A stretch of DNA of 61,392 nt, counting the filler, from Hausera hauseri (Eukaryota): assembly GCA_046269625.1 (NCBI GenBank). It is 7 parts of 7 records of this genome, joined end to end, with 100 filler letters (N's around TTAATTAATTAA, not from the genome) between each part and the next. Parts side by side here need not be neighbours in the genome. Positions count along the whole stretch, not along the records: positions 12,450 to 33,660 come from JBJURY010066660.1; 6 more parts are not named here. One strand, 5' to 3'. Every line of letters starts with the position of its first letter. Position 1 is the stretch's first letter. This document shows positions 19,201 to 47,156 of the stretch, one piece after another. The position numbers and the translations under genes were made by a program. The notes under the pieces were generated by a model. That model was not told the origin of the DNA, ran no database searches, and saw nothing but the letters and a program-made list of their open reading frames with translations.

Positions 19201-21844
19201 TTTTACACAAGAAGGTAAACAAACCATGCATAATAAAATTAGGACTCAAACTAAAATATACTCATCTAAAAACATACCATACCAACCAATATATCTAACA
19301 ACGACATATATTGACGATACAATATATGAACCAAATATGCTAAAAACTATAATACCGTTTATAGTAATATTGACATTTTTGCTAATTATCACAACACCAT
19401 TTACCATTCGACAGTTATTGGTATGGAAGAGAAAAAGAAATATAATAAGGAACCAGAGAAAACAATTACAGATCCTCACGAGAAAAATTAACACAAATAA
19501 AAGAACTGCAAGTCATGTGCAGTTAAACCTAATCAATACGAAAATGCAACCTTTAATAACGACAATGTTTGTTATGTGTTGTTTACAAGTAACAAATGTT
19601 TCTATGATGACTGTGGAATTGACAGAATTAAGCATAAGAGAACTAAAGCTAACTACGATCTCTAAAGATGTAGGACGCTTACATGTCCCAACTAGAAATC
19701 TCTTTAACCAACCAAAGATTGAAAGTTCATATGAACAACCAATAAAAATCTATCAACCTACACAAACCGATTTCGTACAAAAACGAAATCAAACATTAAT
19801 ATTTTCTTTTAGAATACAACTCGACCAAATGGCACACTTCCAAATCGATCTGGACGATTCCGACGCCGATTCAGATACCTCAGTACAAACTGTGGTCCCT
19901 AACCCTAAACGAAGGGTTATACCACCCAACCAAGAATTAAGATTTTCAAATCCAACATTTGGACCACCAATGGTACGTGGAATATTACAATATCCACCAC
20001 AATCAATTCCTTCAATTTTACCAAAACAACTAAAATCAGTTGTTGAAATAAGAAGACCACCACCAGATTTTTCAGAAATACCATCAGAAAAGAAGCAGAA
20101 ATACCAGGAATTAAAAACAAGTATGGATAAAAATCTGGTCGAAAGCCGAGAAGAAAAAATCAAGAACAAAACTTGGGAAGAATTATTACAAAAACATATA
20201 GTCCTACACGAAGGACCAAAAAATCGATTCTCTTCCAAGTTCTATAAAACTATTTTGCAACTCTCAGAGCAAAATTCAGATATATTTTTTCCAGAAGCCA
20301 AATTTTTGGATAATCAACTCAAAGAATCAACATATCACAATCGCAGTTTCCGAATAATATCAATGGAAAAACCACACTACAACATTAGCCTCCAACAGTT
20401 GCTAAAAATACAAGACAAATATGACTTCCTTTATATACATATTGCTCAAGGACAAATACAATTTATTTCTGGAAATGATAATTATTCTTCCAGTAACAAG
20501 GACAAATCAATCAAATCTGCCTATGCCACTATGGAAATCTCTCACTTAGCAATGAGAACTCCTATTCATTACAGAATAATTACTACACCGGCAGTATTAG
20601 CATTTGAGATAGTCTCTAAAGAAGATATGCTAATCGGACTGCAACCACCGTTGTTTTACGCGTCACCAGATTTCCAGAATACTAATAATTTTCAACTAAC
20701 AACAGTTGTTAATTATAGGTATTTGGCAGCCTCATTTGCCTATGGAGTAAATGGAAAGCCTATACCAATTGAAGTCACGATCGCAGATGAAAAGAAGTTG
20801 CTGATATATCATGCATTTAGTAATCCTAGAACAAGGATATCCAATACTAATGAGCATCATCATGGAATAACATTAACTCTCATGATGCAAGCAGAAGATG
20901 AAGAAGTCGTTCGTCAGGAAATAATCAAATACCTATTCGGATACACTGTAATATCAGTCAATACAGTGGCTTTATTAAAAGCATTACGGATTCCTATTGA
21001 ATTTCTGCATGGAATAATTGACTTATTGGCTTTATCCAATACAAAGGATCGGTTTCATGAGATAGGACTACAAAAAGTCAATCTCACTCAATTACCTCAA
21101 GCATATGGAATCAAAGAACACTTTCTGAAGCAGGCCGAATCAGTATTACAAATGATCATGCAAATTCATGGGCTGATCACTGAAAATTGTTCAAACGAAA
21201 AATTAGCATTACAATGGACATCGCTACCAAATAATTTAGTTCATAACGGTTCCTTTCAGAAAATTCCTGAAAAATATCATATTGATTATAAACAAGAAGC
21301 CATACAAAACGACACACCAAGTGTGTTTGATCAAATAAAAAAACAAACAGACATGATAATGAAAAAACTCGAGAAGGAACGACAAGAAATACAACATATT
21401 GGAAAAAAGTTATCAATTCTTTTATACGGAGGAAAAATTAGGACAGTGAATGTATTTTATATACAACAGCCAAAATCAAAGATTACAACTAAAAAACAGT
21501 TGTATCCACATCCTGATTTCGGAAAACTTGTGGCCATAATATATAAAAGCTCCGAATATCAAACCTTACATATGGCTGGTATTGGATACCAAGCAGAAAT
21601 CCTCAGGGAATTGGATGAAGAGACCATTACCACTATGCAACCTATTCCAATTCAGATGGACCTAACCCCCATCCCTAAACCAAGGGGGGGAAAACCCTTA
21701 ATGCTCAATAATACCAACAAAGCAAACCTTCGAATGATTCTGTATTCGTCGCCGAATGGATACATATTGGAAAATCTCTATGGTATCCAGACAACAGAAC
21801 AGTTACCAGAAATGCAATCCAGTGACATTGTGATCCAGCTATGA
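13298..21844 (+). CDS. Polyprotein C-terminal 2848 aa: glycoprotein C-half + TM, PR, RT, RNase H, IN, second signal/ectodomain/TM, unknown domain, dead DEDDh exonuclease
   Basis: TM ~13955-14045; PR LIDTGA (DTG 14885); RT YIDD (16169); RH TDAS..ELELLA..YTDH..DALSR; IN HHCC (17264-17386) and D-D35-E core (MDFSGP, LTDRA, KVER); GPY 18185; hydrophobic segments 18374-18433 and 19346-19408. Confidence 0.95.
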   Translation: MYSEVIENDCRLNQEILRTKLALITSNPDMLVPALPLAEGMFGRVIGETLLTFMCQKLEVNLATDRSELTTCTSEIPVKLNNEIRLVTPITRILLPRETKPTIIQNCSGLIKPRIKYNDQGQWVQLPDSTIVQTPLKITMTSLKYAVDINLFQDTANVGLYGPNELNTFIKQIMFPIMREQEFNRVGHAVLMSGTSSRDYSKGWQSVLDPDLQERTIKKVFGIIFGHFQWLGNIASTILVFYYGFVILKNGCMTCVDAYSIYAITGCTWKILAALLKPIARIFMVRQENKWKQGIEQHVNYIPPNRRRHNGKPPKPPKRTTSTLRGSLNDLRKRVKSFISQNPENVYDKVQPKVYNPKWPSPSLSYRAMIKAKQDICTAPPEYQSDMSGRMLYSPRRSTSPLQNIPLMNPELTRMLQEKRTVELQQSISRSIDDISIHDPYDQREKYLKLSVLKTSGPQYPMDQLKEIKEIQDETHHPNVTVFGTNNFTISTLDDEVLDPRLNQTIRRKVDKRPRTLIKVGNIMLKALIDTGAAISVIKENLIPEDKKHELIIPEIPTIGRSIFGTTQSPIAYWETGIIIYGEYVKVKFRVMKELADEVVIGMDVLSELKDMVINLADGQCKPYKSVKLPEGYKPNTVWMDCDEDIPEFTEVVLFASTAINDEESDFYFKPKLQHETNLIMMPSVSKIVDNKIPVRILNTTVKPLWIRKNQRLGEIVASVTEAIEEIHKSKEYVLLPKLSDTYLNLQQYAELSIKVLKYEDVFAKNEDELGKLKDYHMTIKLKKDPETGCEIDLADQPQPKYYLPPESVRQDLDEEIKRLLKLKIIEKCNAPWVSPTLMVPKKNTTKKRLCIDFRHINKYIISDTYPLPKIKEIIEKLKESEFYVTIDFQCGFWHVKVAKEDRYKTAFRVPRGIYQFKRMPFGLKIAPSVFQRLMTQILIEENNPGVKMPNFEGDMVYIDDLVLTGKSFEQLLEKVVEKLEKCRKTGLKINPKKCKWFKQTIIYLGFKISKKGIETTEEIIQKVIEYPEPRNKKELQGWLGLVGFYADFIENYAQVNESLYQLLKKKVNWEWTQERQDAFDHMKKLLTSAPILQYPDYDYPFIIKTDASGKGLGYILAQQFVNEPTEHVVVYGARSLKPAETRYQATELELLAVKEALRHFCYYIYGRKVILYTDHQALLNKKFSPEITKRMNKWLAYIKDFNIEFRYRPGKQNTDVDALSRMPFNVSSVEEVDNEFNVMLQKYREINTAAIAEKQVKDVQTNYIVEYVKTRKMPQHDQITKYLKKHGMQFILDQEILKYNQDGRLLVVVPKCLRNAVMWQEHDANMAGHPSSRKTKKRIKLKYYWPTLEVDVQNWVDECKMCATIKNKGERFKPPLKLIPEPNSPMEFCAMDFSGPFPLTHNGNKFILLCTDYLTSYSILIPTKDLLAITVAKEFINNILCQFGAPRYLLTDRAPNFRSQLLREITDICQTKRLLTTAYHPQCNGKVERLNYTVQCLLSTMIDKSQKDWDEHLKVVQFAIATTPTSSKYTPFELLYGRKPLLPLDIQLLPEKDIPINTDEEVIHAGVVHSLANYWIRAKHAIREYKASYKEQYDKKSNPHNFQPGDKVMIHYPVAKPGKSLKLTRTGKGPYLVVKATPENVFIEKGTGKKTRIECVSVQRVTKGPKESTPQQEPKYSLRSYKKTTIKPACSLEELLFLVVIFGLILSTASQTLVTEPVNANLDLKIKIIWKYEPYLIDCLLEGEPVFSKIGYLMIPPSKQDIWLLTKRCKVPLMNEVCILQLYYLPVNGILAKENEFEPIARQVHVEKIGQSFFFTQDKDIEPRLIDKVDLKRPTLNSDVDLQITYYFPKFLMHTSGKKALHYHIQMSVPQFFEISVLTTSPTTRIKTTVVINRKVLRIKPQALQKIPSISNVIKDTYIEFKTLSPATQPIQISCIGKYHIMYSVIKEKERTTRCSELQPDEEYLVIFTQEGKQTMHNKIRTQTKIYSSKNIPYQPIYLTTTYIDDTIYEPNMLKTIIPFIVILTFLLIITTPFTIRQLLVWKRKRNIIRNQRKQLQILTRKINTNKRTASHVQLNLINTKMQPLITTMFVMCCLQVTNVSMMTVELTELSIRELKLTTISKDVGRLHVPTRNLFNQPKIESSYEQPIKIYQPTQTDFVQKRNQTLIFSFRIQLDQMAHFQIDLDDSDADSDTSVQTVVPNPKRRVIPPNQELRFSNPTFGPPMVRGILQYPPQSIPSILPKQLKSVVEIRRPPPDFSEIPSEKKQKYQELKTSMDKNLVESREEKIKNKTWEELLQKHIVLHEGPKNRFSSKFYKTILQLSEQNSDIFFPEAKFLDNQLKESTYHNRSFRIISMEKPHYNISLQQLLKIQDKYDFLYIHIAQGQIQFISGNDNYSSSNKDKSIKSAYATMEISHLAMRTPIHYRIITTPAVLAFEIVSKEDMLIGLQPPLFYASPDFQNTNNFQLTTVVNYRYLAASFAYGVNGKPIPIEVTIADEKKLLIYHAFSNPRTRISNTNEHHHGITLTLMMQAEDEEVVRQEIIKYLFGYTVISVNTVALLKALRIPIEFLHGIIDLLALSNTKDRFHEIGLQKVNLTQLPQAYGIKEHFLKQAESVLQMIMQIHGLITENCSNEKLALQWTSLPNNLVHNGSFQKIPEKYHIDYKQEAIQNDTPSVFDQIKKQTDMIMKKLEKERQEIQHIGKKLSILLYGGKIRTVNVFYIQQPKSKITTKKQLYPHPDFGKLVAIIYKSSEYQTLHMAGIGYQAEILRELDEETITTMQPIPIQMDLTPIPKPRGGKPLMLNNTNKANLRMILYSSPNGYILENLYGIQTTEQLPEMQSSDIVIQL

Positions 21845-22130
21845 ACTTTGACTCGCTTAATCCTTTTTATTTTTGTGATACCACTTGCTTTTATATTATT
21901 AGTTTTCTCTGTCTTGTGTATTACATTAAACTTTACTCATCCTTACTAACTGAAAATTCTTAAGTGATTACTTTATTCATTTTATCACTTATGCTTCATT
22001 TTATTCAGTATATCATTTTCTTTTTGTATATCAATGTTTATCTTTTACCGTTTTTTGTTCTTTTTAGTAATGATTTGATCCGAAGATTGAATTTTGATTG
22101 ATAAATTTTTCTGAGGGAAAAATTTCTTTC

Positions 22131-22143
22131 GAGGAGGGAGAGA
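22131..22143 (+). promoter_or_regulatory. Polypurine tract
   Basis: GAGGAGGGAGAGA immediately before the TG at the LTR start. Confidence 0.85.
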
Positions 22144-22934
22144 TGTTGTGGAGATGTTAAGTAATTTAGAAGAATTTAAATATTAGAATGTTAAATATTT
22201 AAAATAATACAAAAACAAACTTAAAGATTACACAAAATTATTGATTTTAACAAGACATGATTTTAACAAACACAAATTAACCACGCATTTTATAGTAGAC
22301 CAACAAAGATCTAACATTAGGCTACTCACAGCCTTAATGCAAATTTTATGTTTTTATTTAATATTTTACATTTTTTACAATTACATAAAAGATTAAATTT
22401 AAAAGTTTAAAAGTACCATAACAGGTACTTGAGTTTTAGACTCATATTTGAGTCATTGATACCAAATTCTGTCAAAGGCCCCCAGAAAGTTACTAAACAA
22501 AGTAACTTCTGCGTGATGGTCATTCTAAACTTGGCAAAAACTATAGAAAAGGTCACTAAAACATCATGACCATAATACGTGATCAGCGTGATCACGCCAA
22601 CAAGCATTTTTAGACTATATAAACGAACGATTAGTTACAAACTCGCCATAATTTTTTAAGCCATTAAAAGTTTTCTAAACTATGCAGTGGATGCGTTAGT
22701 TTGGTTGACCAATATTAGGTCTCACTTCAAATCAATATTTTTGATTTTCTTTACCCTCGAAAGGTTTGTAAACCTTTGTGTTTATTCGAGGTAATTAAAT
22801 TCAAAGTTTGGTTCTAGGATCAAATCATTTAATTGGTAATTTTCTTTATTGTTTTTAATTGTTATATTTTAGAACTTTTACTATTTTGTTGTATTTTGAT
22901 AAATACAAAATTTGTTGTATCCGACCTGTTTTTG

Positions 22935-23204
22935 ATGCTTGGATTTTTTAAAGAAATTTTACAGAGATTTCGAAATCGGTTTCGTTCTAGGCATTATCAT
23001 CCGATAAGTTTTGGGCATTATCATCAGATAGATTCTGGGCGTTATCATCAGATAAATTCTGGGAATTATACATTATATTTTGACTCCGACCAAGACTTTT
23101 TGAAGATATTGGAAGCCTTCTGGGGAGAAACTAAATTGGATTTAGAAATTCATAAAGTGGAAAAAACAAAGGAGAAAATTTATATTTGGTGTAGACTTAA
23201 GTAA
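22935..23204 (+). CDS. Putative small LTR-encoded ORF (89 aa from ATG 22935) containing an 8-aa repeat
   Basis: Open frame 22833-23204 with an in-frame 24-bp repeat (RHYHPISF/GHYHQIDS/GRYHQINS). No recognisable homology. Confidence 0.35.
   Translation: MLGFFKEILQRFRNRFRSRHYHPISFGHYHQIDSGRYHQINSGNYTLYFDSDQDFLKILEAFWGETKLDLEIHKVEKTKEKIYIWCRLK
22985..23070 (+). repeat. 24-bp tandem repeat, 3.5 copies, inside the LTR
   Basis: ttctaggcattatcatccgataag / ttttgggcattatcatcagataga / ttctgggcgttatcatcagataaa / ttctgggaattata. Confidence 0.9.
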
Positions 23205-23463
23205 CTCGTCTTATTTATTTCTTCTTTGTAATTAAATTAAACTTATCCCAAAAAGTAACGCGCTTGGCAGTCTAGAGCAATTAGACTACGCCATTTCACA
23301 CAAAACTAATTAAAATCAAGTTTAGGAATAATTAATTTCTTTCTTGATTGTGGTAATTTTTCATCTAAACCTTACCAAAACACAAACAGTCATAAAGACA
23401 CTGGTGAAAGGATTTTTAATAATTTTGAAATTCTTTTTTAACCAATACCGAATCCGTAACATT

Positions 23464-23481
23464 TGGCGCCCGAACAGGGAC
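23464..23481 (+). promoter_or_regulatory. Primer binding site complementary to tRNA-Lys(UUU)
   Basis: TGGCGCCCGAACAGGGAC is an 18/18 match to the canonical tRNA-Lys3 PBS, 2 nt after the LTR-terminal CA. Confidence 0.95.
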
Positions 23482-23644
23482 TGTTTGTGTACTGATAGGT
23501 AAGAATTCAACAAGGGTAAAATAAATAAAATATTTTGCTCAGAACAGCTTAAAAATTCCTCCGAGACAGTCTCGTAAATCTAAACAAGAAGCTTTAAAAC
23601 GCTTATCTGTCAATTCCACACAGTCGTTAGATAGACAAAAATCT

Positions 23645-26600
23645 GTGAAAAATCCAAAACCAAAGTTAAAAGATCTAACCATAGACATTGAACCATTAAA
23701 TCTTAATCTTCTAGAAGATAATAATTTACCTAACATGGCACAACAACAACAACAACAACCCCAAATTAATGTAACTGTTTTTGAGTCTTTGAACATACCC
23801 AAATACGACGGAGATCCTGCTGGATTATTAAAATTTTTAAAAACGTATCAACTTTTAAGTGAAGGTCTGGGCATGGATACTCAAGCCTATATCAGACGTA
23901 TGCCGTTATATCTAGACAACGTAGCATTAGATGTTTTCCAGGAACTAACAAGAGATGAAAAGGCTGATTGGGAAAAACTAACAGCTGCGCTTATCAAAAA
24001 GCTAATGCCTACAGTAACCCCCACAGCCCAGTTAGCTATCTTACAGAAACGTTTTCAGTTACCCGGAGAAACAGTAACACAATATTCATACGCGCTTTCT
24101 GAATTGGTAAAAAACTATGCCAACACAGTAAAAACCCAAATTTTAATAAAAAATCCTGAAGCTAATGAAGATCAACTAAGAGTCGAAACTGATATTCATC
24201 TGTTGACCCAATTCCAAAGAGGAATAAGGAAAGATATTCGTAACGATGTCTTAAAAAAGAATTGTTTTACTTTTAGAGAGGCAGTAAGAGAGGCCCAAAA
24301 CCTTGAGGCATATGTTGGAACATTTACAGGTGATCCTAAAAATAATAATAAAAAATTTCCACAAAATAACAATGGAAACCAACAAAATTCTCAACAACAA
24401 AAGCCACAAAATGCTAATAATCAGCAACAATCTGATGCCTCAAAGTCTCAAAGTAATGCTACTTTTCCACAAAGTAAAGGTAATAACACCAATAAAAACC
24501 CCTGGAGTAGCAATAATAATAGTAATAAGAGTTCATGGAATAAAAATAATTCGAACCAATACCAACAGAAAGGTAGAGTGGACTTAAATAGAAATGGAAC
24601 TCCAGTAATATGCAAAAGATGTGGCCAAAACGGTCATACTTCGGTCAATTGTATGACCCCAGTAGAACAGTTACCGGCTGTAAAGCAAGAAAAAGTGTTG
24701 AATCTATCGTCATTACACGAAACACTGGATGACGTAAAAATCAAATTGGACAGATTGCCTCCACAAATAAAGGAGCAGTTTCTTAGTCAAGCCGCTAAAG
24801 AAAGCACCGATGTCGATGATATGCTTAAAAGATATCAAGCAGGAAAGTATAAAAACCCCATATCATCAATGATCGACGAAGAAGATTATACGGACGAATT
24901 TGTCACTAACAGTATAATCCTTACAACCAGAAAAAGAGCTTTAGACAAATTATTTAAAGGGGAAACCTTAACACCAGCGGAAGATTATTTGTTAAAGGCT
25001 ATGCCTGTAGGACCTGAAGTTGAACCTTCACAAATGCAACAAAATGCACCTGCACAATTCAACTCCGATGAAGAAATAGAAATAAATCCATTAGCCTCGC
25101 TAGAGAAAGATGAGGAGAAAGGTGAACAAGTGCAGAAAGAACTTAATACAGATTTAGATGACTCTTCGAGCGATAGTTCCGAAAAACCTCTAGTAATTGC
25201 AGATACAGTTGATAAAGTTTTAAATAAACTGGAAATCGAAACACAAGAAACTGGTCCACCATTAACCGCTTATCAATGGATACCGATACAACAGGCACCT
25301 GAAACTGAAGAGTTTCTCACCCAGGTAGTTCCAAAAGTTATTAAAAAGTCGAAGCAAAAACCACATGCTAAACCAATCGAAACAATGTTGGAAAATGATA
25401 ACGAAGAAAAATATGTTAATAAGAGAATAAAACAAGATGTCAAAAATATACTAAGTGGAGAAATACCAGAGTATGCAAAAGATTTGCCAGAGATGCAGTT
25501 GGTAATTTTATCGAAACATCTGAATGATCCAAAAAAGTTGAAACAATCCAAAGTATTTGATGATCTCTTACAGACATTAAAACAAATACATAAAAATCGT
25601 TACAGTAAAGAATGTACTGAAATTGATGAATTAATAGACGAGGTTTTAGGTAGAAAAAGAGATACTTCAATCTCACAAATACTAACCAAATCACCTTCAG
25701 TAGAAGCAATAGATTTAACTGAGGATTCTCCACAGACAGAAGATACTTTGCCACAATTGCTACAAAAAGCTAGAGATGTGGACATGGAAAAGATTTCCAC
25801 TTTATCCCAACTTGAAAAAATTTCGCAAGGATTGGAAAATCAATTATTCCTTAAGAAACTAAACTATCAAGATAGACAAAATGTTCAAAGCAGCATCCGA
25901 GATTTACAACAAAAGATAGCCGATTTTCAACAAAGGTTACAGCTCATCGAAGAGATATATTTTGATATTGATAGAATAAACCAAATGAAGCTTTCAAGGC
26001 AAGAAAAGATGAAATGGATTCACAGAAAGAATGAAATAGCTCTGGTGTCAGAATATCCTTTTCAAAAAGAGAATGAAAAATGTATTTTTGAAGTTCGACA
26101 AGAGATTGACAAATTCACCAAACCAACTATACAAAAGGTTAACGAACTAAAACTTAGGATCGAAAAATTGAGTCAACTCAACTTACCTAATTTGTCGCAG
26201 GAAAAATTAAATAAACAAATTCTAAAACTAAATAAATTCAAAAATACGTTTTCAGAAGTAGATCGCGCTAAAATAAACGCTATAGAAAGTTTTATTGATA
26301 GAATAGATGATACACCGAAAATCATGAACAAAATTGAGGAGTTAAAGCTAAAACTGAAAGATAAAAGAATTAAATCAGTAGATAAACCCAAAGCCAAAAA
26401 ACATTTCAAAATGATATCAGCCCTTAAACCATTCTTTACAGAATTAGATAAAAAGAAAATTCAAAGGATAGCTGAATGGTATGAAGATGCGACAAGTAGT
26501 CAAAATCAAGATATTGACGACATACCATTAGAAGAACTAGATGACTCAGAAGAAGCCGACACGGCCGAAGAGTTAAATCTAACGGAAGAAGATGTAGAAA

Positions 26601-29600
26601 AAACTCTACAGCAGTATGAAGAGGTGATAACACAACCTCACCAAGATCCTGTGTATCAAGTACAGTATTCACCCGAAAAATTAAGATCCGACATTTCTTT
26701 AACTCAGGTTTGGCCTGAAGTCTTAGATGAGCACCTATTGAATCTCTTTGAGCCAAAGTTTGATTTACAAGAATTAAAGGAAAAAATACCAGAATTAATT
26801 ATATTAGCAGCCGATAATAACAGATATAATGCATTACCAAGAATGTTACTGAAACAATACGGGACTACATTCCGACAAAATCCTCCTTTAGTACTTCCAT
26901 TAAGGGTAATAACTTTAAAGACTAAAGAGATGAAAATAATTATGTCTACTCATGACAATGTATTAGCTACAAAACAAGCTATAGCGGAAAAGATCAAAAT
27001 AAACATAAATTATATGCGAATTATTTTTGCAAATCGAATACTAGATAACGCTTCTTACCTAACAGAAGTAGGTATCCTACCAGGAGAAAATAACGAGATC
27101 CATGTCATAGAAACTAAACAATTACTTAAAGAAGATATAATCAGGCGAATTTCTGATGGACAAGAAATCAAAATAGACGAAGAAATTCTTGGAATAAACG
27201 ATAAAAAATTGTTTGTAAACAAACTCAAACATAATATTCAAACTCAACAAATAACTCCTATAGCTGAATATGATAAGGAAATACATCAGGATATACCTCA
27301 GCAGCTACTACAAGCTCAACAGAAAAAATTAAAAACTAAACAAACAAATGAAGATTTTATAATAAATTCTTTTGTTCAAAAAATGACAACAACTGAAGTC
27401 ATAAAAACGAATAAGAATTACAAGATAATTCGTGATTTAGTAAAGGAGCTATATGACATCATCACTGGTGTGACAACTATTAGTAAAGAAACACCAAATT
27501 GGATAAAAGGCGTAAAAGAATTGGCATTGCAATATCAAAGAGATCAAGTACCTAAACATTTCCGTGAACAAATAGTCAAGAAATTATTACAAACTCCAAC
27601 AAAAAGACGTATCGAAAAAACGTTAGTCTATCTAGTAACGACAATAGAAAGTAAATCTGAAATTAAGGAAATTATTCCAATCATAATCGACTTGATAGAC
27701 TCGGATGTTTACAAGTTCGGAGGATGGATGTCAATATTTGATAAAAACGTATCAACACAAGTGCAGCCGGCAGTACCAAAAATGACGTTAGAAACGTTGC
27801 CTGAGGTTGTAACCCAACTTACAGAATCAATAAAAGAGCAACAAATACAAGAAGAAAAAGAAGGAAAACCAGCATCGTATAATACTAAAAACATAATAAA
27901 TGCAATATTAGCTGTCTTGTTGCTTTTAACAACTATCCTACCAAAAGGAGCCGGTATTACAATATATGATTGCAACAATAATATTAAGCACGGAAAGTAC
28001 TATTCCCTAATGGATTTAGATAAATGCCCAGATGCATCACCTCACCGCCTAACTACTCAAAAGGAACATATGTACGTCTACCAACAAAAACAGAAGTTAC
28101 ACATATCTGGTTATGAATGCTCCTTGCAAATGTCGGAAAAGTTGCAATATTGCGGGATGCATAGTCACATATCAGAAATTAAACCTTTTACTCCATTCAT
28201 GCAGTTAAAAATTACACCGCAGCAATGCTTAGAAGCCATACAATATGGGAGAATTAATTGGGATGGATTTACTATAGATATCCAACCAGGTGAAGTACGA
28301 ACAGTATTACGTTATAAAGAAGGAACAATTGACGCTGCAGGAAATTGTGCAGCTAATGGTGGAGGTAAAGGAAATATACATACACAAAGGTATATTGCCG
28401 AATTAAAAACAGCAAAATTTATTTTTGACACCACCACAGGTACTATGGTAGATGCACCATTTTGCAAATATACAGCAGAATCATGTCGAGTAAGAACCGG
28501 GTTATTAACTTGGACAAATGATAAAAAATCAAGCTGTCATTTGGCACTTCTAAAAGAAGGAATATTTAACGTGACAACCGGTTATCGTTATAGTGATGAA
28601 ATGAATAGAAATCTACCGGATTCAACCGTTAAAGTAATTCCGGAGGTAAATACCCCAACCATATATTGGTCAAGCAATATAACAGAAGGAATGAAATTTA
28701 TCAGGCAGGAAGCCACGGTGATATGTGACACCACTTTATGGAAAACGAATTATGATAATTTTTTCATATCCTCAATGAAAGTTAGAGGAGCAGATAACGA
28801 ATTCTTTGACAAAACTCAACACTTGGATTTACAATCATACATCAGAAATCGCGATGACTATTTATATTTTATCACTACAAAAAGAATACATGAAATGTAT
28901 TCAGAGGTCATAGAAAATGACTGTAGGTTAAATCAGGAGATTTTAAGAACCAAATTGGCTCTAATCACATCAAATCCAGATATGCTGGTCCCAGCATTAC
29001 CCCTAGCTGAAGGAATGTTTGGCAGAGTGATCGGCGAAACTCTGTTAACCTTCATGTGCCAAAAACTTGAAGTAAATTTAGCTACTGATAGATCAGAATT
29101 AACAACATGCACATCTGAAATTCCGGTCAAATTAAATAATGAAATAAGATTGGTAACACCAATAACACGAATTCTTCTACCCAGGGAAACCAAACCCACT
29201 ATTATTCATAATTGTTCAGGACTAATAAAGCCTAGGATAAAATATAATGATCAAGGACAATGGGTACAACTACCCGATAGCACTATAGTCCAAACACCAT
29301 TAAAAATAACGATGACATCCTTAAAATACGCTGTTGATATAAACTTATTCCAGGACACAGCAAACGTAGGACTATATGGACCAAACGAGCTAAATACATT
29401 CATAAAACAAATTATGTTCCCTATAATGAGAGAACAAGAATTCAATCGAGTAGGCCATGCAGTCCTAATGGGTGGAACATCAACCAGAGACTATAGTAAA
29501 GGATGGCAAAGTGTTCTAGATCCTGATCTCCAAGAGAGAACCATAAAAAAGGTTTTTGGTATAATATTTGGACATTTTCAGTGGCTTGGCAATATAGCCT

Positions 29601-32600
29601 CCACTATATTAGTTTTTTATTATGGGTTCGTAATACTTAAAAATGGATGCATGACCTGCGTAGATGCATACTCCATATACGCCATAACTGGGTGTACTTG
29701 GAAAATATTAGCTGCTCTACTAAAACCGATAGCTAGAATTTTTATGGTACGGCAGGAAAATAAATGGAAACAAGGAATTGAACAACATGTGAACTACATT
29801 CCACCAAATCGAAGACGTCATAGTGGAAAATCTCCAAAACCACCTAAACGAACAACAAGTACCCTAAGAGGAAGTTTAAATGATTTAAGAAAGAGAGTCA
29901 AAAGTTTCGTATCACAGAATCCAGAGAATGTCTACGATAAGGTACAACCAAATATGTATAATCCTAAATGGCCGAGTCCATCACTATCATATCGTGCAAT
30001 GATAAAAGCTAAACAGGATATCTGTACTGCACCTCCCGAATACCAATCGGATATGTCAGGAAGAATGTTGTATTCTCCAAGAAGATCAACGTCGCCCCTG
30101 CAGAATATACCACTAATGAATCCAGAATTAACACGGATGATACAGGAAAAAAGAAACGTTGAGTTGCAACAGTCTACATCAAGAGGTATTGATGATATAT
30201 CAATTCATGATCCATATGATCAGCGAGAGAAATACCTAAAGTTATCGGTATTAAAAACCACCGGCCCACAATATCCTACGGATCAACTAAAAGAAATAAA
30301 AGAAATACAAGATGAAACCCATCATCCTAATGTTACTGTTTTTGGTACTAACAACTTTACAATATCAGCATTAGATGACGAAGTTTTAGACCCTCGATTA
30401 AATCAAACAATTCGTCGTAAAATCGATAAAAGGCCAAGAACATTAATTAAAGTAGGAAATATTATGTTGAAAGCTCTGATCGATACGGGAGCAGCAATAT
30501 CCGTTATAAAAGAAAATTTAATTCCAGAAGATAAGAAACATGAGCTAATAATTCCAGAAGTCCCGACAATAGGTAGAAGTATATTTGGCACTACCCAATC
30601 TCCAATAGCTTACTGGGAAACAGGTATAATTATATATGACGAATATGTTAAAGTCAAATTTAGAATAATGAAAGAATTAGCCGATGAAGTCGTCATTGGA
30701 ATGGATGTATTGTCAGAATTGAAGGACATGGTTATCAATTTAGCAGATGGACAATGCAAACCATACAAAAGTGTAAAATTACCCGAAGGTTATAAACCTA
30801 ATACAGTATGGATGGATTGTGATGAAGATATTCCAGAATTTACAGAAGTCGTCTTGTTTGCAAGCACAGCAATAAATGATGAAGAATCGGACTTTTATTT
30901 TGAACCTAAACTTCTACATGAAACTAACTTGATAATGATACCATCCGTTAGTAAAATAGTTGATAATAAAATTCCAATCCGAATGTTGAACACTTCTGTC
31001 AAATCCTTATGGTTAAGAAAGAACCAAAGACTCGGTGAAATAGTAGCTTCAGTCACTGAAGCAATAGAAGAGATTCCTAAATCAAAGGAATATGTGCTAT
31101 TACCTAAACTGAGTGATACGGATTTAAATCTCCAACAGTATGCTGAATTAAGCATTAAATTACTAAAATATGAAGATGTTTTCGCCAAAAATGAAGATGA
31201 TTTAGGGAAACTCAAAGATTATCACATGACTATTAAACTAAAGAAAGATCCAGAAACAGGATGTGAAATCGATCTTGCAGATCAACCACAGCCTAAATAC
31301 TATCTACCACCAGAGTCAGTAAGACAGGATTTAGACGAAGAGATTAAAAGACTTCTAAAGTTAAAAATAATAGAAAAATGTAATGCGCCTTGGGTATCAC
31401 CTACCCTAATGGTACCTAAAAAGAACACAACCAAAAAACGATTGTGTATTGATTTTAGGCACATTAATAAATACATCATAAGTGATACATATCCATTACC
31501 CAAGATAAAGGAAATTATCGAAAAATTAAAGGAAAGTGAATTTTATGTTACTATTGATTTCCAATGTGGTTTCTGGCATGTTAAAGTTGCCAAAGAAGAT
31601 AGATATAAAACTGCTTTTCGAGTACCAAGAGGTATATACCAATTTAAAAGAATGCCATTTGGACTAAAGATAGCTCCATCGGTTTTCCAAAGATTGATGA
31701 CACAAATATTAATAGAAGAAAATAATCCAGGTGTGAAACTGCCCAACTTTGAAGGAGACATGGTTTATATCGATGATTTAGTTTTAACAGGAAAATCTTT
31801 TGAACAGCTACTAGAAAAAGTAGTAGAAAAGCTAGAAAAATGTAGAAAGACAGGATTAAAAATAAACCCTAAAAAATGCAAATGGTTCAAACAAACCATA
31901 ATTTATTTGGGTTTTAAAATATCTAAGAAAGGTATAGAGACCACGGAAGAAATAATTCAAAAAGTTATCGAATATCCTGAACCTAGAAATAAAAAAGAAT
32001 TACAAGGTTGGTTAGGATTAGTTGGTTTCTATGCAGACTTCATAGAGAATTATGCGCAAACAAATGAATCTTTGTATCAATTATTAAAAAAGAATGTAAA
32101 TTGGGAATGGACTCAAGAAAGGCAAGATGCTTTCGATCATATGAAAAAATTGCTCACATCAGCACCCATTTTACAATATCCCGATTATGACTACCCCTTT
32201 ATCATAAAAACAGATGCAAGCGGAAAAGGGCTAGGATATATATTAGCACAACAATTTGTAAACGAACCTACTGAACACGTAGTAGTATACGGCGCTAGAT
32301 CATTAAAGCCTGCTGAAACCCGATATCAAGCTACTGAATTGGAACTGTTGGCAGTAAAAGAAGCTCTAAGACATTTTTATTACTATATCTACGGCCGGAA
32401 AGTCATCCTTTATACAGATCACCAAGCTTTGTTAAATAAAAAATTCAGTCCAGAAATAACCAAGAGAATGAACAAATGGTTAGCCTATATAAAAGACTTT
32501 AATATAGAGTTCAGGTATAGGCCAGGAAAGCAGAATACTGATGTGGATGCATTATCTAGAATGCCCTATAATGTGTCATCGATTGAAGAAGTTGATAACG

Positions 32601-32692
32601 AGTTCAATGTTATGTTACAGAAATATAGAGAGATAAACACAGCAGCTATTGCTGAAAAAGACGTAAAGGATTTTCAAACAAATTTCAAATAA
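23645..32692 (+). CDS. Polyprotein N-terminal 3015 aa: Gag, linker, ubiquitin-like domain, chuvirus-like glycoprotein, PR, RT, RNase H (first ATG at 23735)
   Basis: Capsid-like 'IPKYDGDPAGLLKFL..' (~23795-24320); N/Q-rich tract; CCHC CKRCGQNGHTSVNC (24611-24652); UBL 26900-27112; signal 'IINAILAVLLLLTTILPKGAG' then 'ITIYDC..SLMDLDKCP..YCGMHSH' (27956 onward); TM ~29550-29640; DTGA; YIDD; RNase H. Confidence 0.95.
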   Translation: MKNPKPKLKDLTIDIEPLNLNLLEDNNLPNMAQQQQQQPQINVTVFESLNIPKYDGDPAGLLKFLKTYQLLSEGLGMDTQAYIRRMPLYLDNVALDVFQELTRDEKADWEKLTAALIKKLMPTVTPTAQLAILQKRFQLPGETVTQYSYALSELVKNYANTVKTQILIKNPEANEDQLRVETDIHLLTQFQRGIRKDIRNDVLKKNCFTFREAVREAQNLEAYVGTFTGDPKNNNKKFPQNNNGNQQNSQQQKPQNANNQQQSDASKSQSNATFPQSKGNNTNKNPWSSNNNSNKSSWNKNNSNQYQQKGRVDLNRNGTPVICKRCGQNGHTSVNCMTPVEQLPAVKQEKVLNLSSLHETLDDVKIKLDRLPPQIKEQFLSQAAKESTDVDDMLKRYQAGKYKNPISSMIDEEDYTDEFVTNSIILTTRKRALDKLFKGETLTPAEDYLLKAMPVGPEVEPSQMQQNAPAQFNSDEEIEINPLASLEKDEEKGEQVQKELNTDLDDSSSDSSEKPLVIADTVDKVLNKLEIETQETGPPLTAYQWIPIQQAPETEEFLTQVVPKVIKKSKQKPHAKPIETMLENDNEEKYVNKRIKQDVKNILSGEIPEYAKDLPEMQLVILSKHLNDPKKLKQSKVFDDLLQTLKQIHKNRYSKECTEIDELIDEVLGRKRDTSISQILTKSPSVEAIDLTEDSPQTEDTLPQLLQKARDVDMEKISTLSQLEKISQGLENQLFLKKLNYQDRQNVQSSIRDLQQKIADFQQRLQLIEEIYFDIDRINQMKLSRQEKMKWIHRKNEIALVSEYPFQKENEKCIFEVRQEIDKFTKPTIQKVNELKLRIEKLSQLNLPNLSQEKLNKQILKLNKFKNTFSEVDRAKINAIESFIDRIDDTPKIMNKIEELKLKLKDKRIKSVDKPKAKKHFKMISALKPFFTELDKKKIQRIAEWYEDATSSQNQDIDDIPLEELDDSEEADTAEELNLTEEDVEKTLQQYEEVITQPHQDPVYQVQYSPEKLRSDISLTQVWPEVLDEHLLNLFEPKFDLQELKEKIPELIILAADNNRYNALPRMLLKQYGTTFRQNPPLVLPLRVITLKTKEMKIIMSTHDNVLATKQAIAEKIKININYMRIIFANRILDNASYLTEVGILPGENNEIHVIETKQLLKEDIIRRISDGQEIKIDEEILGINDKKLFVNKLKHNIQTQQITPIAEYDKEIHQDIPQQLLQAQQKKLKTKQTNEDFIINSFVQKMTTTEVIKTNKNYKIIRDLVKELYDIITGVTTISKETPNWIKGVKELALQYQRDQVPKHFREQIVKKLLQTPTKRRIEKTLVYLVTTIESKSEIKEIIPIIIDLIDSDVYKFGGWMSIFDKNVSTQVQPAVPKMTLETLPEVVTQLTESIKEQQIQEEKEGKPASYNTKNIINAILAVLLLLTTILPKGAGITIYDCNNNIKHGKYYSLMDLDKCPDASPHRLTTQKEHMYVYQQKQKLHISGYECSLQMSEKLQYCGMHSHISEIKPFTPFMQLKITPQQCLEAIQYGRINWDGFTIDIQPGEVRTVLRYKEGTIDAAGNCAANGGGKGNIHTQRYIAELKTAKFIFDTTTGTMVDAPFCKYTAESCRVRTGLLTWTNDKKSSCHLALLKEGIFNVTTGYRYSDEMNRNLPDSTVKVIPEVNTPTIYWSSNITEGMKFIRQEATVICDTTLWKTNYDNFFISSMKVRGADNEFFDKTQHLDLQSYIRNRDDYLYFITTKRIHEMYSEVIENDCRLNQEILRTKLALITSNPDMLVPALPLAEGMFGRVIGETLLTFMCQKLEVNLATDRSELTTCTSEIPVKLNNEIRLVTPITRILLPRETKPTIIHNCSGLIKPRIKYNDQGQWVQLPDSTIVQTPLKITMTSLKYAVDINLFQDTANVGLYGPNELNTFIKQIMFPIMREQEFNRVGHAVLMGGTSTRDYSKGWQSVLDPDLQERTIKKVFGIIFGHFQWLGNIASTILVFYYGFVILKNGCMTCVDAYSIYAITGCTWKILAALLKPIARIFMVRQENKWKQGIEQHVNYIPPNRRRHSGKSPKPPKRTTSTLRGSLNDLRKRVKSFVSQNPENVYDKVQPNMYNPKWPSPSLSYRAMIKAKQDICTAPPEYQSDMSGRMLYSPRRSTSPLQNIPLMNPELTRMIQEKRNVELQQSTSRGIDDISIHDPYDQREKYLKLSVLKTTGPQYPTDQLKEIKEIQDETHHPNVTVFGTNNFTISALDDEVLDPRLNQTIRRKIDKRPRTLIKVGNIMLKALIDTGAAISVIKENLIPEDKKHELIIPEVPTIGRSIFGTTQSPIAYWETGIIIYDEYVKVKFRIMKELADEVVIGMDVLSELKDMVINLADGQCKPYKSVKLPEGYKPNTVWMDCDEDIPEFTEVVLFASTAINDEESDFYFEPKLLHETNLIMIPSVSKIVDNKIPIRMLNTSVKSLWLRKNQRLGEIVASVTEAIEEIPKSKEYVLLPKLSDTDLNLQQYAELSIKLLKYEDVFAKNEDDLGKLKDYHMTIKLKKDPETGCEIDLADQPQPKYYLPPESVRQDLDEEIKRLLKLKIIEKCNAPWVSPTLMVPKKNTTKKRLCIDFRHINKYIISDTYPLPKIKEIIEKLKESEFYVTIDFQCGFWHVKVAKEDRYKTAFRVPRGIYQFKRMPFGLKIAPSVFQRLMTQILIEENNPGVKLPNFEGDMVYIDDLVLTGKSFEQLLEKVVEKLEKCRKTGLKINPKKCKWFKQTIIYLGFKISKKGIETTEEIIQKVIEYPEPRNKKELQGWLGLVGFYADFIENYAQTNESLYQLLKKNVNWEWTQERQDAFDHMKKLLTSAPILQYPDYDYPFIIKTDASGKGLGYILAQQFVNEPTEHVVVYGARSLKPAETRYQATELELLAVKEALRHFYYYIYGRKVILYTDHQALLNKKFSPEITKRMNKWLAYIKDFNIEFRYRPGKQNTDVDALSRMPYNVSSIEEVDNEFNVMLQKYREINTAAIAEKDVKDFQTNFK

Positions 32693-34683
32693 CTTTTTGC
32701 AGAAGTTCGATGATTCAAGCCGAGCTCGGTTCGAACTCGAACTTTTTTCTAGTTTTCGAGTTTGTCATAATATACATAACAGAATATGTAATTGTGAAAA
32801 ATTACACAAAAGGCGTGTCCGTATATTTCGTATATTCATTATTGGAATAAAAAACGCCTAACTGATTGGACAGATTAGTATGAGCCATTATAAACTTTTG
32901 ACCTTAATGCTAAAAGATATTTTTATACGCTTAATGAATTTTGGATGATTAATTTGACATTAATGTCATTTCAAATTTTGACTACAAACTATTCAGTGGA
33001 AACTAATTTGTTTTTATGGGCAAATTAATATTTTTCAAATGGCACTCGGCAATGATTTCAGTTATTACGTAAACTCTCTTAAAAGTTTCCTATTTGACTT
33101 ATAACCAAACTGAGATATCCACCAAACCGCCCGTTCCTGAGTTTTCAGTTAATCTCCAGAACCATACTGTGTATCATTAGATATTCGGCAGTCGGTCAAA
33201 TTCCGATAAACGAACAATCGATTCTTTTGACTCATCAATCAGTCATTAAACATCTACACGATAATAAACTGAAAACTGCACATGTAAATACACTGTTGAA
33301 CTTAACACAAACAGTACAGTCTAATTGAGAAAAGAAAATAATACCAATAATAAACTTACTTAATTATGTGATTGATCTTATTTATTGCAACAACTTAAAC
33401 TGTTATGACACTTTGAATTGCACAAGAGTCCCTTGCTTTTACAACTGCATTTATTTGTGGAACGCTTCCTTTTGTAATGTATATCCTTGCTCCCCACTTC
33501 TCGAATTAGCTGCAGCTTCTTCTCTCAGCGACATTTCTTGAGAAGAAATCTCATCTATGGAAAGTAACTTTTCTTTACAAATTATGAACTGATTACGAGT
33601 ATAAAGCTGCTTGAGGATAAGTTTTTGTTTGCTAATTTATAAAATTCGGAGTCTTTTATTNNNNNNNNNNNNNNNNNNNNNNNNNNNNNNNNNNNNNNNN
33701 NNNNTTAATTAATTAANNNNNNNNNNNNNNNNNNNNNNNNNNNNNNNNNNNNNNNNNNNNTCCTAGACACCACTGGAACAACAGGATTGCTCAACGCCAC
33801 TACTCCAGAGTCCTTATTAGGACTACAGCCCTTATCAGGGCTCACCCAGAAGAGCTTTCGCTCTGTGATGTGGAGATCAAACAAGAACAAGACCAAGTAA
33901 AATATTGAGAAAATGACATCAACTTGATACTGTATCAATGAAATTTTATGGGTAATTTCCTCGTAAAGTGGCAGTTGCATTGTCTTGACCGGAGTTAGAG
34001 ATGCCGTGTGGAAGCCCGCGACTAATGGCAGGCCTATTTACTGATAATTCATGATCAATTAAGATCTTTGCACAAGTACAGGTCATGATTCTAGGGAGAC
34101 GAAAGCGAAATCTACAGATCAGCAGGTGAAGGATCTGAATGATCCACAGCGGAGTGGTGACTCATTTTTGGGAGACCGAAAATTGCACTAGCAACCAGAT
34201 GCACTTAGTCCTTCATCGTAGATAATCACCGGCACAGCCGGAAAGCGTTGCTTCCTACCTCCAAATAGTCCTTTTCAGCATTTAAACATCCTTTTTCTCG
34301 GTGGTCATTTGGAAAACCTAATCACCTGGTAATGCTGAGATCAGAACAAATACCTTGGCATACAATGGAAATGTCGACGGTTTCAGTATGAAACAGTGTT
34401 GTCAAAATGTTTCACTAATATGCCTTTCAAAACGTATTTGACTGTAATTTCAGACTGTTTCAGAATGTCATTAGATGGTAAGTGCACAAAGAATGCTTCC
34501 ATTTGACAGATTGAATCCATGGAATCTGGTCTAATTAAAACTAATTATGTAAACGATCAGGTGTTACTTCAAACAATGTATAAAGTAGGAAAGACACAGG
34601 ACATTCATAAAATAGTAAAACTTTAGTATTTTTAATGGACGAATTAAACATTGATAAAAACATCAAAGGGAAAAAGTAAACAT

Positions 34684-35219: not shown

Positions 35220-36700
35220 CTAAAAGTTCCTTGATGACCACATTCTCGCAGGTGGCACGATTTGTAAGTCTGAGAAATTGAAGTCTTCAAATGTTGGGGT
35301 AAAGTGTTTTACATCATTAAAACTCCTCATTCTTTCCACCGTAACATTGTTCAAATCCTTCACTGCTGTTATTCTGAAACATTCACCTTGATTCACACTC
35401 TGAATTTCATTTTCACTAGAGTATTCATTACCTGTTTCAGGACATTGCTGGGAATGATTATCGTGTTCTTCCTGGTTTTTACTGTACCTGGAATTCTCGT
35501 CCCAAACGGTTGTTCCAACCCACTCCTTAAAATCAGAGAAAATAGATTTCTTCGTGGTGCCAGTCACTTTAGAACTACAAGTTTGGGTGTTTGTCAAAGG
35601 CAGTGTGCGAACAGACTGAGTTAGTTCTAATTCAGCAAAACTGTTATCATCAAGAAGAGGTGAAGCCTGAATTATATTCAAGCTGGGCTGTGATGTACTG
35701 GAATAATGATCTTGATGCACATTTCTTGCTAAACGGCCATCGTTATTTGATGATGTGAATGAAAGGACATGCGGATTACGATTTTTTTCATTCCATAAAT
35801 CTGGTGATGTCTCTTCTGCAGTCGATTGCTTATTTGACGTGTCTGTATTTTGCTGAAAGAAAGAGGACTGTGCATGTGAAAAAACATCTGGAACATTTGT
35901 CTCATTAAACATGTACGCCTGTCTCGAATTTTCTTTCTCCGTATTTATGTTTACATTTTCATGATTCTTGTTAGTATGAAAGAGAGGCCATATATTTTCT
36001 TCATTTCCTCCAGTCTTTTCTGGGCTTTGTTGAGTGAAGCCGTTATCATCTATGGAGCATGCCTCTGTTACTCCCGAGAACTCTGTACCTTTCACTGAAT
36101 GTACATTATGAAAGTTATACAAGAATGGAAAATCATATTCATTTTTACTGTCATGTATTTCAGCGTAAAAACAACAGTCTTCGTGTGATACTGCATCGTC
36201 GTTTGAGCTTTCAGGTAAAATTTCCATACCCGAATTCGAAGTTATGTTGTTTTGAAACTGAGAATAAAAACCGTGGTGTGAGTCGGAAATTATGCAACCG
36301 GAATTTGAATACCTTTGGAAACTCTTTAGTTTGTGAGAATCATCATTGCCGCTTGTTGATCTAGACCATGTTATAAAGTCTTGTGACGGTGAAAGTGTGT
36401 GAACTGTTTCGAACTGCTGACGGCAGACATACCCACATCCTTGTTCATGTATCATGCTAATATAATTACTTTCACAGTTCGGAGAACTATCTGACAGTCT
36501 ATGAAGTGATGTATGATTGATCTTATCTCCAAATGCACCACTTGTATTAACGAAGGTATTATTGGTCACTGGTCCTAGAAAATCTTCATTCCTGTCTTTT
36601 AACAGTGAAGAAGCATAGATTTGCCAGCGTGGAATAAATTCTTTTGCATTTGGGTTCAGTTTGAATCTGCTTAGACGTGTCTCAGCTAACCTCGGATTTT
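35220..36700 (-). CDS. Large, probably terminal exon of a host gene encoding a PAM2-motif, low-complexity Ser/Asn-rich protein
   Basis: About 490 open codons after the acceptor ctctttcttttttctccag (36701-36719). 'SRFKLNPNAKEFIPR' fits the PAM2 (PABP-interacting) consensus. Confidence 0.6.
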
Positions 36701-39199
36701 CTGGAGAAAAAAGAAAGAGAGTAAAAAATCTTTTATTAATGTTTATAATTTTGTGATAATAAAGAATAGCATGTAAATATACACAAAGAAGTCGATAGTA
36801 TTTTGATATTCTCTGTTTGCAAAAGAAGGGCAATAAGACCTAATTTAGTTTTCTTAAAGGACCATGTCATCAATGCACAACGAATGTTTTCCATCAAAAG
36901 CCTGATGACCATGCAAAGATCTAAATCTCCGTTCAGTGTACGAATTCCGTAAAGTTTAAATTTCACTTTCGACTATTCTACCTTGCGGTTAAAGGCTGGT
37001 TTTGGAATACTATTTATTGCCTTTAAAAAGCACAACAGCATTACCCATGTCTCGAACACCTTTAACAATTCGGGACATTTAGTTGATGTAGCTTAATGAT
37101 GATATTTTATTGTAATCAAATGGCACACAAAATGGTGATGTGGTTTATATCACGCCTGATCGCATTTAGTAGAATGATTATGAACTAAAATTTTCTGCCT
37201 TGCAGACAAAATATACTTAAAACAATTACTAAAAATATATTTTTCAATATCGTCATTTCTATCATTTTTATAACTAACATACAAAATAAATATAACAGCA
37301 ATAATACACATGAGCTAATTATTTGTCTCAGAAAAAACAATGTTTGGAGTTATAATAACATCCATATTTATTTGTATTTTGTCGTTTCTACGTTGTTCTT
37401 TTCAGAGTCGTGACTTAAATTTCCTTCTGCCATTGGCTTCCAGGAATTTCTTTGTAAGGGATTTAGATTGTTTTTTATTCTTCTGTCAAGCCTCTTTCAC
37501 TCAGTCTACCAAGCCTTCTCTTAGTCCACCTTTTGTTCCAAACTCGTATGTTCTTCTGTAGAAATTAGGATGTGGTATTTAGTCTGGAAGCATTCTATCA
37601 AGATGGTCAATCAACTGTATCTTTTATTTTTTCCCACTATTCTCCAAATATGATCTTCTCCCAACCTTATCTCTGTACAGTTATTTAGTATACTAAAACG
37701 TGCTTTTGCTATATTTCTTATAGTCTAGTATCCATGTTTGATTGGATACATGTGATACGAAAGTCTGTCAATATCAAAAGAGAAAGATGCCTGAAAATGA
37801 ATGCAGGCCGTTGGGCCTCGTACAAGGATATTTTTTCAATATGAGACCTCTTGCCTTATGATGCCCAGTATGTATAAGCTCTATTCACTGTCTTCTCGGA
37901 AAAAAAAAAACAGCAATGAAATTAAGGAAGGAAGGAATTTATACTTAGAACAATTGCATTAAAAATGTTCATGTTATACTGTGCTTACCAAAGTGGGGAC
38001 AACAGTTTTCACACAGCAAGCCATTTATATTTGAAAACAAGTCAATGTGTAAGGCAGCCTCAGTTGACAGTGCCATCATATCCTGCTTTTTTTTTACCCC
38101 AATACAGAGTTCACTAAAAGATAGAAATGAAACTTGTTACAATAATACAATCTAAATACTAAAACAGTATTTTAAAAAATAAGTGAATATCTCTTTTCCA
38201 AGCCCAACAAAAATGTCAAAAAACAGCTTGATATTATGGTAAAATTATGATCGTAACAGTGCCATTTGTTTGTTCTTGTAAACAATGCAACCGAGTGATG
38301 AATTCTTATGAAAACGTCCCAAAAGGAATATTCTGGTTCAGACATGAGATTATGGAAAATGTACAGAATTACCTTAAAGGGCAGACTGAGAATCTCCATT
38401 CAGTAGTGTAATGCGTGAAGTGATCCATCACTCTGCTTTGGAACATCTCCATACACTTCCCAATTGACCGGAAGGTTTATCTAAATGTGCCGATTTTTCG
38501 AAAATGAAAAATACTTAAACATGACAGTAGCTATTCACTTTCTTCCTTGTACTTCGTGAAAACGCGCCTACGAAATGGTTTTCTTTCTTGTTTACTGCCA
38601 TTTATGTTGAAGCCGTAGACATGATATGCATATTAATTATGTGTGACACTTTTTTAATTTTGGAAATGGCGTGGATAGTTTATTAAAAGGCTTTTCTCGT
38701 GCGAAGTTTGAAACATAATAATTTCTTGTATCATTATCATCAGGTGCCACGCTGTGAAGCGTATGTCGTCATAGATCACCATTTCTCACGATTCCTGGTG
38801 TCCCCAATCATCTCTGACTTCCTTCCGAGACAATTACGCAATACATTCAGAAACGTTACCCTCTGTGGTTCACTACTTCTATTTAGTGTTGTTTTGTATG
38901 TGGTAGCTACAGAAGGGACACTAAAACCTTGTTGCAAGCAGTACATTTTTAACATAACCCCATACATCCGATGAGAGCAAAATTTGGAGACCTGGCCAGT
39001 GGACGACTGAAACGAAGTAGTTTTATTCATCGATCTAAAAGGTTAATAAGAATGTACAGCAATGAACTACCAAGTACATCCACACCATAAATGCAAAAAC
39101 CAAAAGCATAGTAGCAACCTCTTAATATCAGTGTTAACAACACTACTATAAAAGATTACCATACCAGGGAACATATAAATGGCTGCAGAAATTAACTAC

Positions 39200-44620: not shown

Positions 44621-44669
44621 ATGCGGGGAAAATGGTCACACTGGTGGGCCCGAATCAATGAGAGAAATC

Positions 44670-47017: not shown

Positions 47018-47156
47018 TTCTTCTTGATTACTTCTGACACCAGTTTATGGGTTGTTTGGTTAGCGGATCGAATAGACAGAATGAAGTAAATCAACAATTA
47101 CGTTAAACAACAATAGAGAACGATTTATTTTTTTTTAATTTCAAGAAATCAATTTT

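Follow-up and report, generated by a model that had tools for sequence, protein, structure and literature searches.

Which protein is encoded at positions 27890–29750 of a 61,392-nt stretch of Hausera hauseri DNA, and how does it relate to the retroelement sequences around it? The stretch (the window, to whose positions all coordinates refer) consists of 7 joined parts. A first-pass annotation had read the region as a chuvirus-like, class III-type fusion glycoprotein (G), captured independently by a Ty3/Gypsy element in a new position upstream of the protease. Our analysis upholds the identity of the protein and of its carrier but not the novelty of the position. The region is very probably the env gene of a large Ty3/gypsy long terminal repeat (LTR) retrotransposon with a Burro-like GAG-ENV-POL layout, and its product, a predicted class III glycoprotein, is likely the fusogen of the element's particles.

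All motifs quoted in the annotation are present in a single frame on the + strand, which carries every feature of the element described here: ITIYDC at 27956, YSLMDLDKCP at 28001, GYECS at 28109, YCGMHSH at 28148, and YSEVIENDCRLNQEILRTKL at 28898. The Cys-rich ectodomain (27956–29581) comprises 544 amino acids, 14 of them Cys, and carries 3 N-glycosylation sequons. Downstream, at 29582–29746, lie a transmembrane anchor (about 29582–29644, hydropathy 1.65) and a weaker, likely amphipathic hydrophobic segment (~1.1). The proposed signal peptide was borne out in part. A hydrophobic segment does span 27890–27955 (hydropathy 2.01), with cleavage predicted before ITIYDC and the same segment found in relatives; however, it is internal, starting at residue ~1456 of a 3,055-amino-acid open reading frame (ORF) that begins with Gag, and is better described as a signal/anchor segment. 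The Pfam family Monjiviricetes_fusion (PF24664) matches G over profile positions 4–629 of 653 with an E-value of 4.2e-61, far beyond chance.

A model of G built from an alignment of 110 sequences has a mean predicted local distance difference test (pLDDT) score of 80.4, with most of the ectodomain above 90 and a central helix of 48 residues. Every PDB row that Foldseek listed for this model is a herpesvirus gB (best E 3.9e-13, TM-scores 0.2–0.4), and VIA-align matches 402 residues to gB with Z 11.1 at a root-mean-square deviation of 8.1. The closest viral models are glycoproteins of chu-like and related negative-strand viruses (E 2.8e-38). When 137 G sequences are combined into a profile, 34 of its 36 PDB matches are to gB, albeit weak ones (best E 0.012); a single-sequence PDB search with G returned nothing useful, and viral_contigs gave no match. 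Because Foldseek, VIA-align, the viral models, and the profile all point to gB or chu-like G, the class III (gB-type) fold is sound as a prediction. Profile and structure searches, the check named in the first-pass annotation, place G among viral fusion glycoproteins as that annotation had held. G has a family and a predicted fold, including the long central helix, in common with the class III fusogens gB and Chuvirus/Monjiviricetes G. Sequence identity is 17–20% with the best-ranking viral G models and ~10% with gB; unlike these proteins, G is embedded in a retroelement polyprotein.

The G region corresponds to residues ~1456–2076 of the stop-free 3,055-residue ORF (23525–32692), in which Pfam families follow in the order zf-CCHC, ubiquitin, Monjiviricetes_fusion, retroviral protease, reverse transcriptase (RT), and RNase H (RH). 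This ORF belongs to one of two partial copies of the element, copy B (23462–32684), which lacks its 3' part: it ends shortly past RNase H, copy A can be matched to it as far as 32684, and unrelated DNA lies beyond. Copy A (13264–22143) lacks the 5' part. It contains, from 13264, a second partial G that was absent from the annotation, and its stop-free ORF (13289–21844, 2,851 amino acids) begins within the C-terminal half of G and continues in the same frame through protease (PR), RT, RH, integrase (IN), and ~1,150 residues of post-integrase cargo. The copies are 93.2% identical across 3,824 nt, and G lies upstream of the protease in both, as annotated. Between them sits a putative LTR of 1,318 nt bounded by TG...CA (22144–23461). 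A polypurine tract (22131–22143) directly precedes the TG, and two bases past the CA lies a primer-binding site (23464–23481), which we take to be of the tRNA-Lys type. No second copy of the 1,318-nt stretch was found in the window, so the LTR assignment draws on these flanking signals, not on a repeat pair.

The polyprotein starts, in copy B, with Gag (23735–24724), which has one CCHC zinc knuckle (24608–24655) and matches Retrotrans_gag (E 8e-4), Ty3_capsid (E 0.002), and zf-CCHC (E 0.038), all below the curated cut-offs. Downstream of G are an aspartic protease with a DTG motif (30425–30724; PF00077, E 1.4e-7) and RT (YIDD) with RNase H of the Ty3/gypsy type (31412–32500; PF00078, PF17919, PF17917). 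The integrase of copy A (17225–18298) has an H2C2 zinc finger (PF17921, E 5.7e-17), a core (PF00665, E 0.0015), and a C-terminal GPY-type part (PF18697, E 0.027). As each copy is partial, the full domain order was deduced from the two overlapping copies; the overlap arithmetic gives a full-length polyprotein of ~4,570 amino acids and an internal sequence of ~14.3 kb.

An arrangement read from partial copies might be an assembly artefact, or a viral insertion and a transposon might adjoin by chance. The two copies are arranged head to tail around a single LTR, share 3.8 kb of content, and end abruptly at 13264 and 32684; no target-site duplication was found at these outer ends, and among the listed contigs none covers the stretch from end to end. 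The head-to-tail tandem may be misassembled, or may stem from recombination or deletion, but the fusion of G to pol is no artefact. Both copies hold G and pol in one stop-free frame, the 7% of positions at which they differ are mostly silent sites, and the same fusion recurs in unrelated assemblies, which refutes an artefact for the fusion itself. We regard this explanation as extremely improbable. The element is also a many-copy family, as shown by run X1, in which 3,871 contigs fall on positions 17000–33600, cover all 30 bins, and range in identity from <90 to >99%; the read depth in X1 gives no copy number. Smaller shares lie in runs X2 and X3, and the support for a many-copy family is drawn from X1.

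Judged by its sequence, the pol is of the Ty3/gypsy and not of the BEL/Pao type. It follows the order PR-RT-RH-IN with Ty3/gypsy-type RT and RH, and the best solved relative of RT-RH in the PDB is Ty3 Gag-Pol (E 1e-68). All 63 pol matches carry RVT_1, nearly all of them together with PF17917/PF17919, and none carries a BEL/Pao family. Pfam searches of the element found no Peptidase_A17, DUF1759, or DUF5641, families that the BEL/Pao polyprotein P0002 does carry (P numbers denote stored proteins examined as relatives). The Gypsy-type pol of the first-pass annotation is thereby confirmed, and these searches give no sign that the RT groups with BEL/Pao Anakin elements: among solved structures RT-RH is nearest to Ty3, and the RT is barely alignable to that of P0002 (E 0.007).

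Where G came from was approached through its relatives. A search of 1.84 billion representatives returned 823 relatives at E ≤0.001, of which the best 150 were listed. Among these listed matches, G is 29–34% identical to Gypsy polyproteins in which env precedes pol (env-first; E-values to 2e-90) and mostly 20–26% identical to stand-alone G proteins of ~650 amino acids. Of 16 relatives scanned for being long or among the top matches, 11 carry G and then protease in one chain. P0004, P0006, P0016, and P0018 continue into a full Gypsy-type RT-RH-IN after G-protease, and one further relative into RT-RH; P0153 is another env-first relative with protease after G. The spacer between PR and RT of the element is homologous to that of P0004, P0006, P0014, and P0153. 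Several aspartic-protease domains occur in P0005, P0006, P0007, P0013, and P0153, with up to 7 matched stretches in P0153, and P0004 is filed by its source under a bacterial name, most likely a binning error.

A FastTree phylogeny of G was computed from 55 sequences: all 8 flagged as G-before-pol, 2 of the BEL/Pao type, and, out of 112 further sequences with long matches, the first 45. In it, the window G joins 16 proteins via a long branch with support 1.0, as the deepest and longest-branched member; 12 of the 16 have protease after G and 4 end near G. Both BEL/Pao-type G proteins fall outside this clade. In a blastp comparison over RT-RH-IN with 27 pols, the top three scores are likewise those of env-first elements. 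Of the two trees that the annotation proposed to compare, that of G groups it with the env-first Gypsy clade, and the placement of pol is unstable.

These results bear on the claim of an independent capture, which held in one respect and failed in another: G is separate from the Anakin-type G in the tree, whereas a fresh capture from a chuvirus donor is not shown. The tree shows no donor because it is midpoint-rooted and no virus is named among its tips. Had this Gypsy lineage recently and independently acquired its glycoprotein from a chuvirus, this would fit the nearest viral folds, which are those of chu-like and related negative-strand virus glycoproteins, as well as the long branches of both G and pol and the fact that pol is not always placed among env-first elements. 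Against it, G is nearer to the env-first polyproteins than to stand-alone G, joins the former with full support, and shares a Bcl-2-like neighbour with four of them. We therefore consider such a capture very unlikely.

Purifying selection on G is strong, its constraint being comparable to that on the polymerase. Between copies A and B, G has 31 silent and 4 replacement changes over 221 codons, a ratio of nonsynonymous to synonymous rates (dN/dS) of 0.033, and RT has 45 and 4 over 260 codons (dN/dS 0.019). The comparison was made at dS 0.24–0.34 and covers the C-terminal part of G; its transmembrane region has 14 silent and no amino-acid changes over 70 codons. The dN/dS result argues that the envelope is needed and is not a passenger. 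The need could in principle be other than infection, with G kept for intracellular particle assembly or trafficking, or because it benefits the host through cell-cell fusion or by blocking receptors. A single ORF would yield G in amounts equal to Gag and Pol, unlike spliced env genes, and PMC13524379 calls the entry mechanism of gB-type elements unknown. Constraint on a par with RT in a many-copy family is, however, expected of a protein needed for spread, and the whole gB-like fold is kept in the predicted model, so that we hold a role outside infection to be unlikely.

The reading as an env gene fits elements already in print. In planarian Burro (GYPSM1; Arkhipova & Yushenova 2019, PMC6431247), env lies in frame between gag and pol and matches mononegavirus fusion glycoproteins; the order is Ubi/SUMO, BCL2, env in frame, and PR within one ORF of 4,873 amino acids, in an element of >30 kb. 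The element described here also has one huge ORF with Gag first and the order PR-RT-RH-IN, and it places a ubiquitin-like domain, then one assigned to the Bcl-2 type by way of relatives, before an in-frame env ahead of PR. It differs in length (~14.3 kb internal sequence plus a 1.3-kb LTR), in having one CCHC knuckle where Burro has two or three, in lacking BIR, ankyrin, and MATH matches, and in a membrane protein and a DEDD-like domain after IN that the accessible text of PMC6431247 does not mention for Burro. By comparison of descriptions, the element is Burro-like in layout and not Burro itself, being about half the size with different cargo.

Elements with gB-type env in the order GAG-ENV-POL have been described from the Ty3/gypsy group in nematodes, bryozoans, and flatworms (Chary & Hayashi, PMC13524379). 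That study lists 9 flatworm and 10 bryozoan elements, together with 114 arthropod Gypsy elements with Anakin-like G, and argues for an ancient association; it supersedes PMC10084718, which reported no clear Gypsy capture in arthropods. Our element resembles these errantiviruses in its Ty3/gypsy pol, its gB-type env (by family and predicted fold), its gag-env-pol order, and its multiple copies. Compared by eye, the clade of the window G has motifs and cysteine spacing in common with the six C1a rows that the paper gives for Schmidtea, and G itself looks different from the C1 rows of nematodes and the C2b rows of bryozoans displayed there. In-frame fusion and post-integrase cargo are not discussed in its accessible text. 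Anakin elements, by contrast, come from mosquitoes and belong to BEL/Pao (Dezordi et al. 2020, PMC7642597). They share the glycoprotein family, and G is 24% identical to that of P0002; the G of P0002, however, lies at the C-terminus after integrase, its pol is BEL/Pao, and Anakin-type G stands outside the window clade. Identity with Troyka (PMC12440569) was ruled out by its CG termini, as opposed to TG...CA here.

The element is best regarded as a new and divergent addition to the Ty3/gypsy elements with gB-type env in GAG-ENV-POL order, whose arrangement was already known. The annotation's claim of a new position falls with the publication of Burro and of the errantiviruses, and the locus should not surprise a specialist, since a Gypsy env ahead of the protease has been in print since 2019. 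What it adds is a divergent, selection-tested example to the little-studied retroelements that hold a class III fusogen inside a Gag-Pol polyprotein.

Two domains lie between Gag and G. A ubiquitin-like domain (26903–27106) matches PF00240 above the cut-off (E 1.2e-7). Directly before G, 27557–27739 encodes a likely Bcl-2-like domain, degenerate in sequence, with a BH2-like GGW motif. This motif before G is common to P0003, P0008, P0015, and P0017. PF00452 (Bcl-2) matches four of the five aligned stretches, namely those of the four relatives, the window stretch being the exception, and a joint profile of the five matches Bcl-xL at E 8e-4. The Bcl-2-like part is modelled as helical at pLDDT 40–60 and gave no structural match, its pLDDT being low and the match lists filled by gB. 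Pfam searches of the element found no BIR, ankyrin, MATH, or dUTPase-like domain, all of them features of Burro, where the dUTPase-like region sits between PR and RT.

After the integrase, copy A is predicted to encode a second type-I membrane protein (18377–19414), composed of a signal-like segment, an ectodomain of ~320 residues, and a transmembrane segment (hydropathy peaks 2.16 and 2.44). P0004 and P0006 likewise have paired hydrophobic peaks in a signal-ectodomain-transmembrane layout after IN, with no detectable sequence similarity to the module of this element. The ectodomain matched no Pfam family and nothing in the Atlas at 0.9, and neither it nor the tail had a blastp match among the stored proteins at E 1e-3. 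A fibronectin-III reading of the ectodomain, prompted by a motif, was not confirmed: there was no Pfam FN3 match, and a poor four-row alignment gave no PDB match.

The C-terminal tail of copy A includes a DEDD/DnaQ-like exonuclease domain (20696–21238) that is likely catalytically dead. It was recognised via a homologue, as the copy A domain itself matches no exonuclease family model: the domain is homologous to a related element at 57–58 kb (tblastn E 3e-11), and that homologue matches DnaQ-family exonuclease models at E 2e-4. In all three tails compared by eye (20696–21238, 57017–57541, and 1113–1298), the first acidic DEDD motif is replaced by non-acidic residues, as if diverged elements had all retained a pseudo-nuclease. 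The copy A tail also has a weak PDB match to GPI16 (E 0.01) and no usable Atlas match. In a narrow literature search, within the text accessible to it, we found no description of such post-integrase cargo, be it the membrane protein with its signal-ectodomain-transmembrane layout or the DEDD exonuclease that is likely dead.

Two further relatives of the element lie in the window. The decayed one, at 55662–61392 (- strand), has RH and IN 40–54% identical to copy A and contains in-frame stops. Its IN is followed by a signal-like segment, by the tail domain seen in copy A (DnaQ/DEDD-like, E 2e-4), and, at 55699–56406, by a weak RING-finger ORF. The other, a broken relative at 1–4746 (- strand), has an IN 45% identical and, after it, a hydrophobic segment and the same tail domain.

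Taken as an env gene, the region suggests the following route. One long polyprotein would be threaded through the endoplasmic reticulum membrane four times. G and the second ectodomain would thereby come to lie in the lumen, and Gag, the ubiquitin- and Bcl-2-like domains, PR-RT-RH-IN, and the tail in the cytosol; just four segments of the polyprotein exceed hydropathy 1.6, and they lie where this topology requires them. Signal peptidase would free the N-terminus of G, and the element's own protease would cut the cytosolic parts. G might then trimerise, enter budding Gag particles, and fuse these with neighbouring or germ-line cells, while the ubiquitin-like, Bcl-2-like, and dead-nuclease modules may dampen host responses.

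Several points weigh against parts of this account. No R-x-x-R furin-type site was found in the G ectodomain. Neither window copy is complete, copy A having RT and IN and no gag, and copy B gag and no IN. Run X1 is possibly the window's own source. Pol is unplaced in one tree and paired with a long branch in another; it groups with five env-first pols (SH-like approximate likelihood ratio test 97) only with three long rows dropped and under the simpler LG+G4 model. The Bcl-2 assignment is indirect, the relatives were selected for the GGW motif, and the pairwise Bcl-2-like scores are equalled by 5, 8, 86, and 240 of 1,000 shuffles.

A fuller version of the env reading would make this compact Burro-like lineage a true enveloped virus, with a gB-type fusogen, a receptor-binding protein after the integrase, anti-host accessories, and possibly a non-triclad host; we rate it as rather unlikely. 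Receptor binding by the post-integrase protein would recall gD or gH/gL, which stand beside gB in herpesviruses. The second membrane protein is a concrete candidate for an entry partner of G. How gB-type retroelement envelopes mediate entry without the herpesvirus partner proteins is an open question according to PMC13524379.

Other sequences in the window are unrelated to the element or of host type. An ordinary Gypsy-like element, unrelated to the one above, is present in two decayed copies at 5219–9536 (+ strand) and 42238–44635 (- strand), with 25% pol identity to copy A at 7715–9208. On the - strand, 44950–47044 encodes a cadherin domain (PF00028, E 2e-12) and then EGF-like sequence rich in Cys, 35220–36839 a 539-amino-acid ORF with a PAM2 motif, and 12518–12880, adjoining copy A, a Pro/Gln/His-rich exon; by their predicted products, these stretches point to host-type coding and an animal host. 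At 51237–51547, four tandem repeats of ~77–82 nt lie within a pair of 56-nt inverted repeats, possibly a small non-autonomous DNA transposon.

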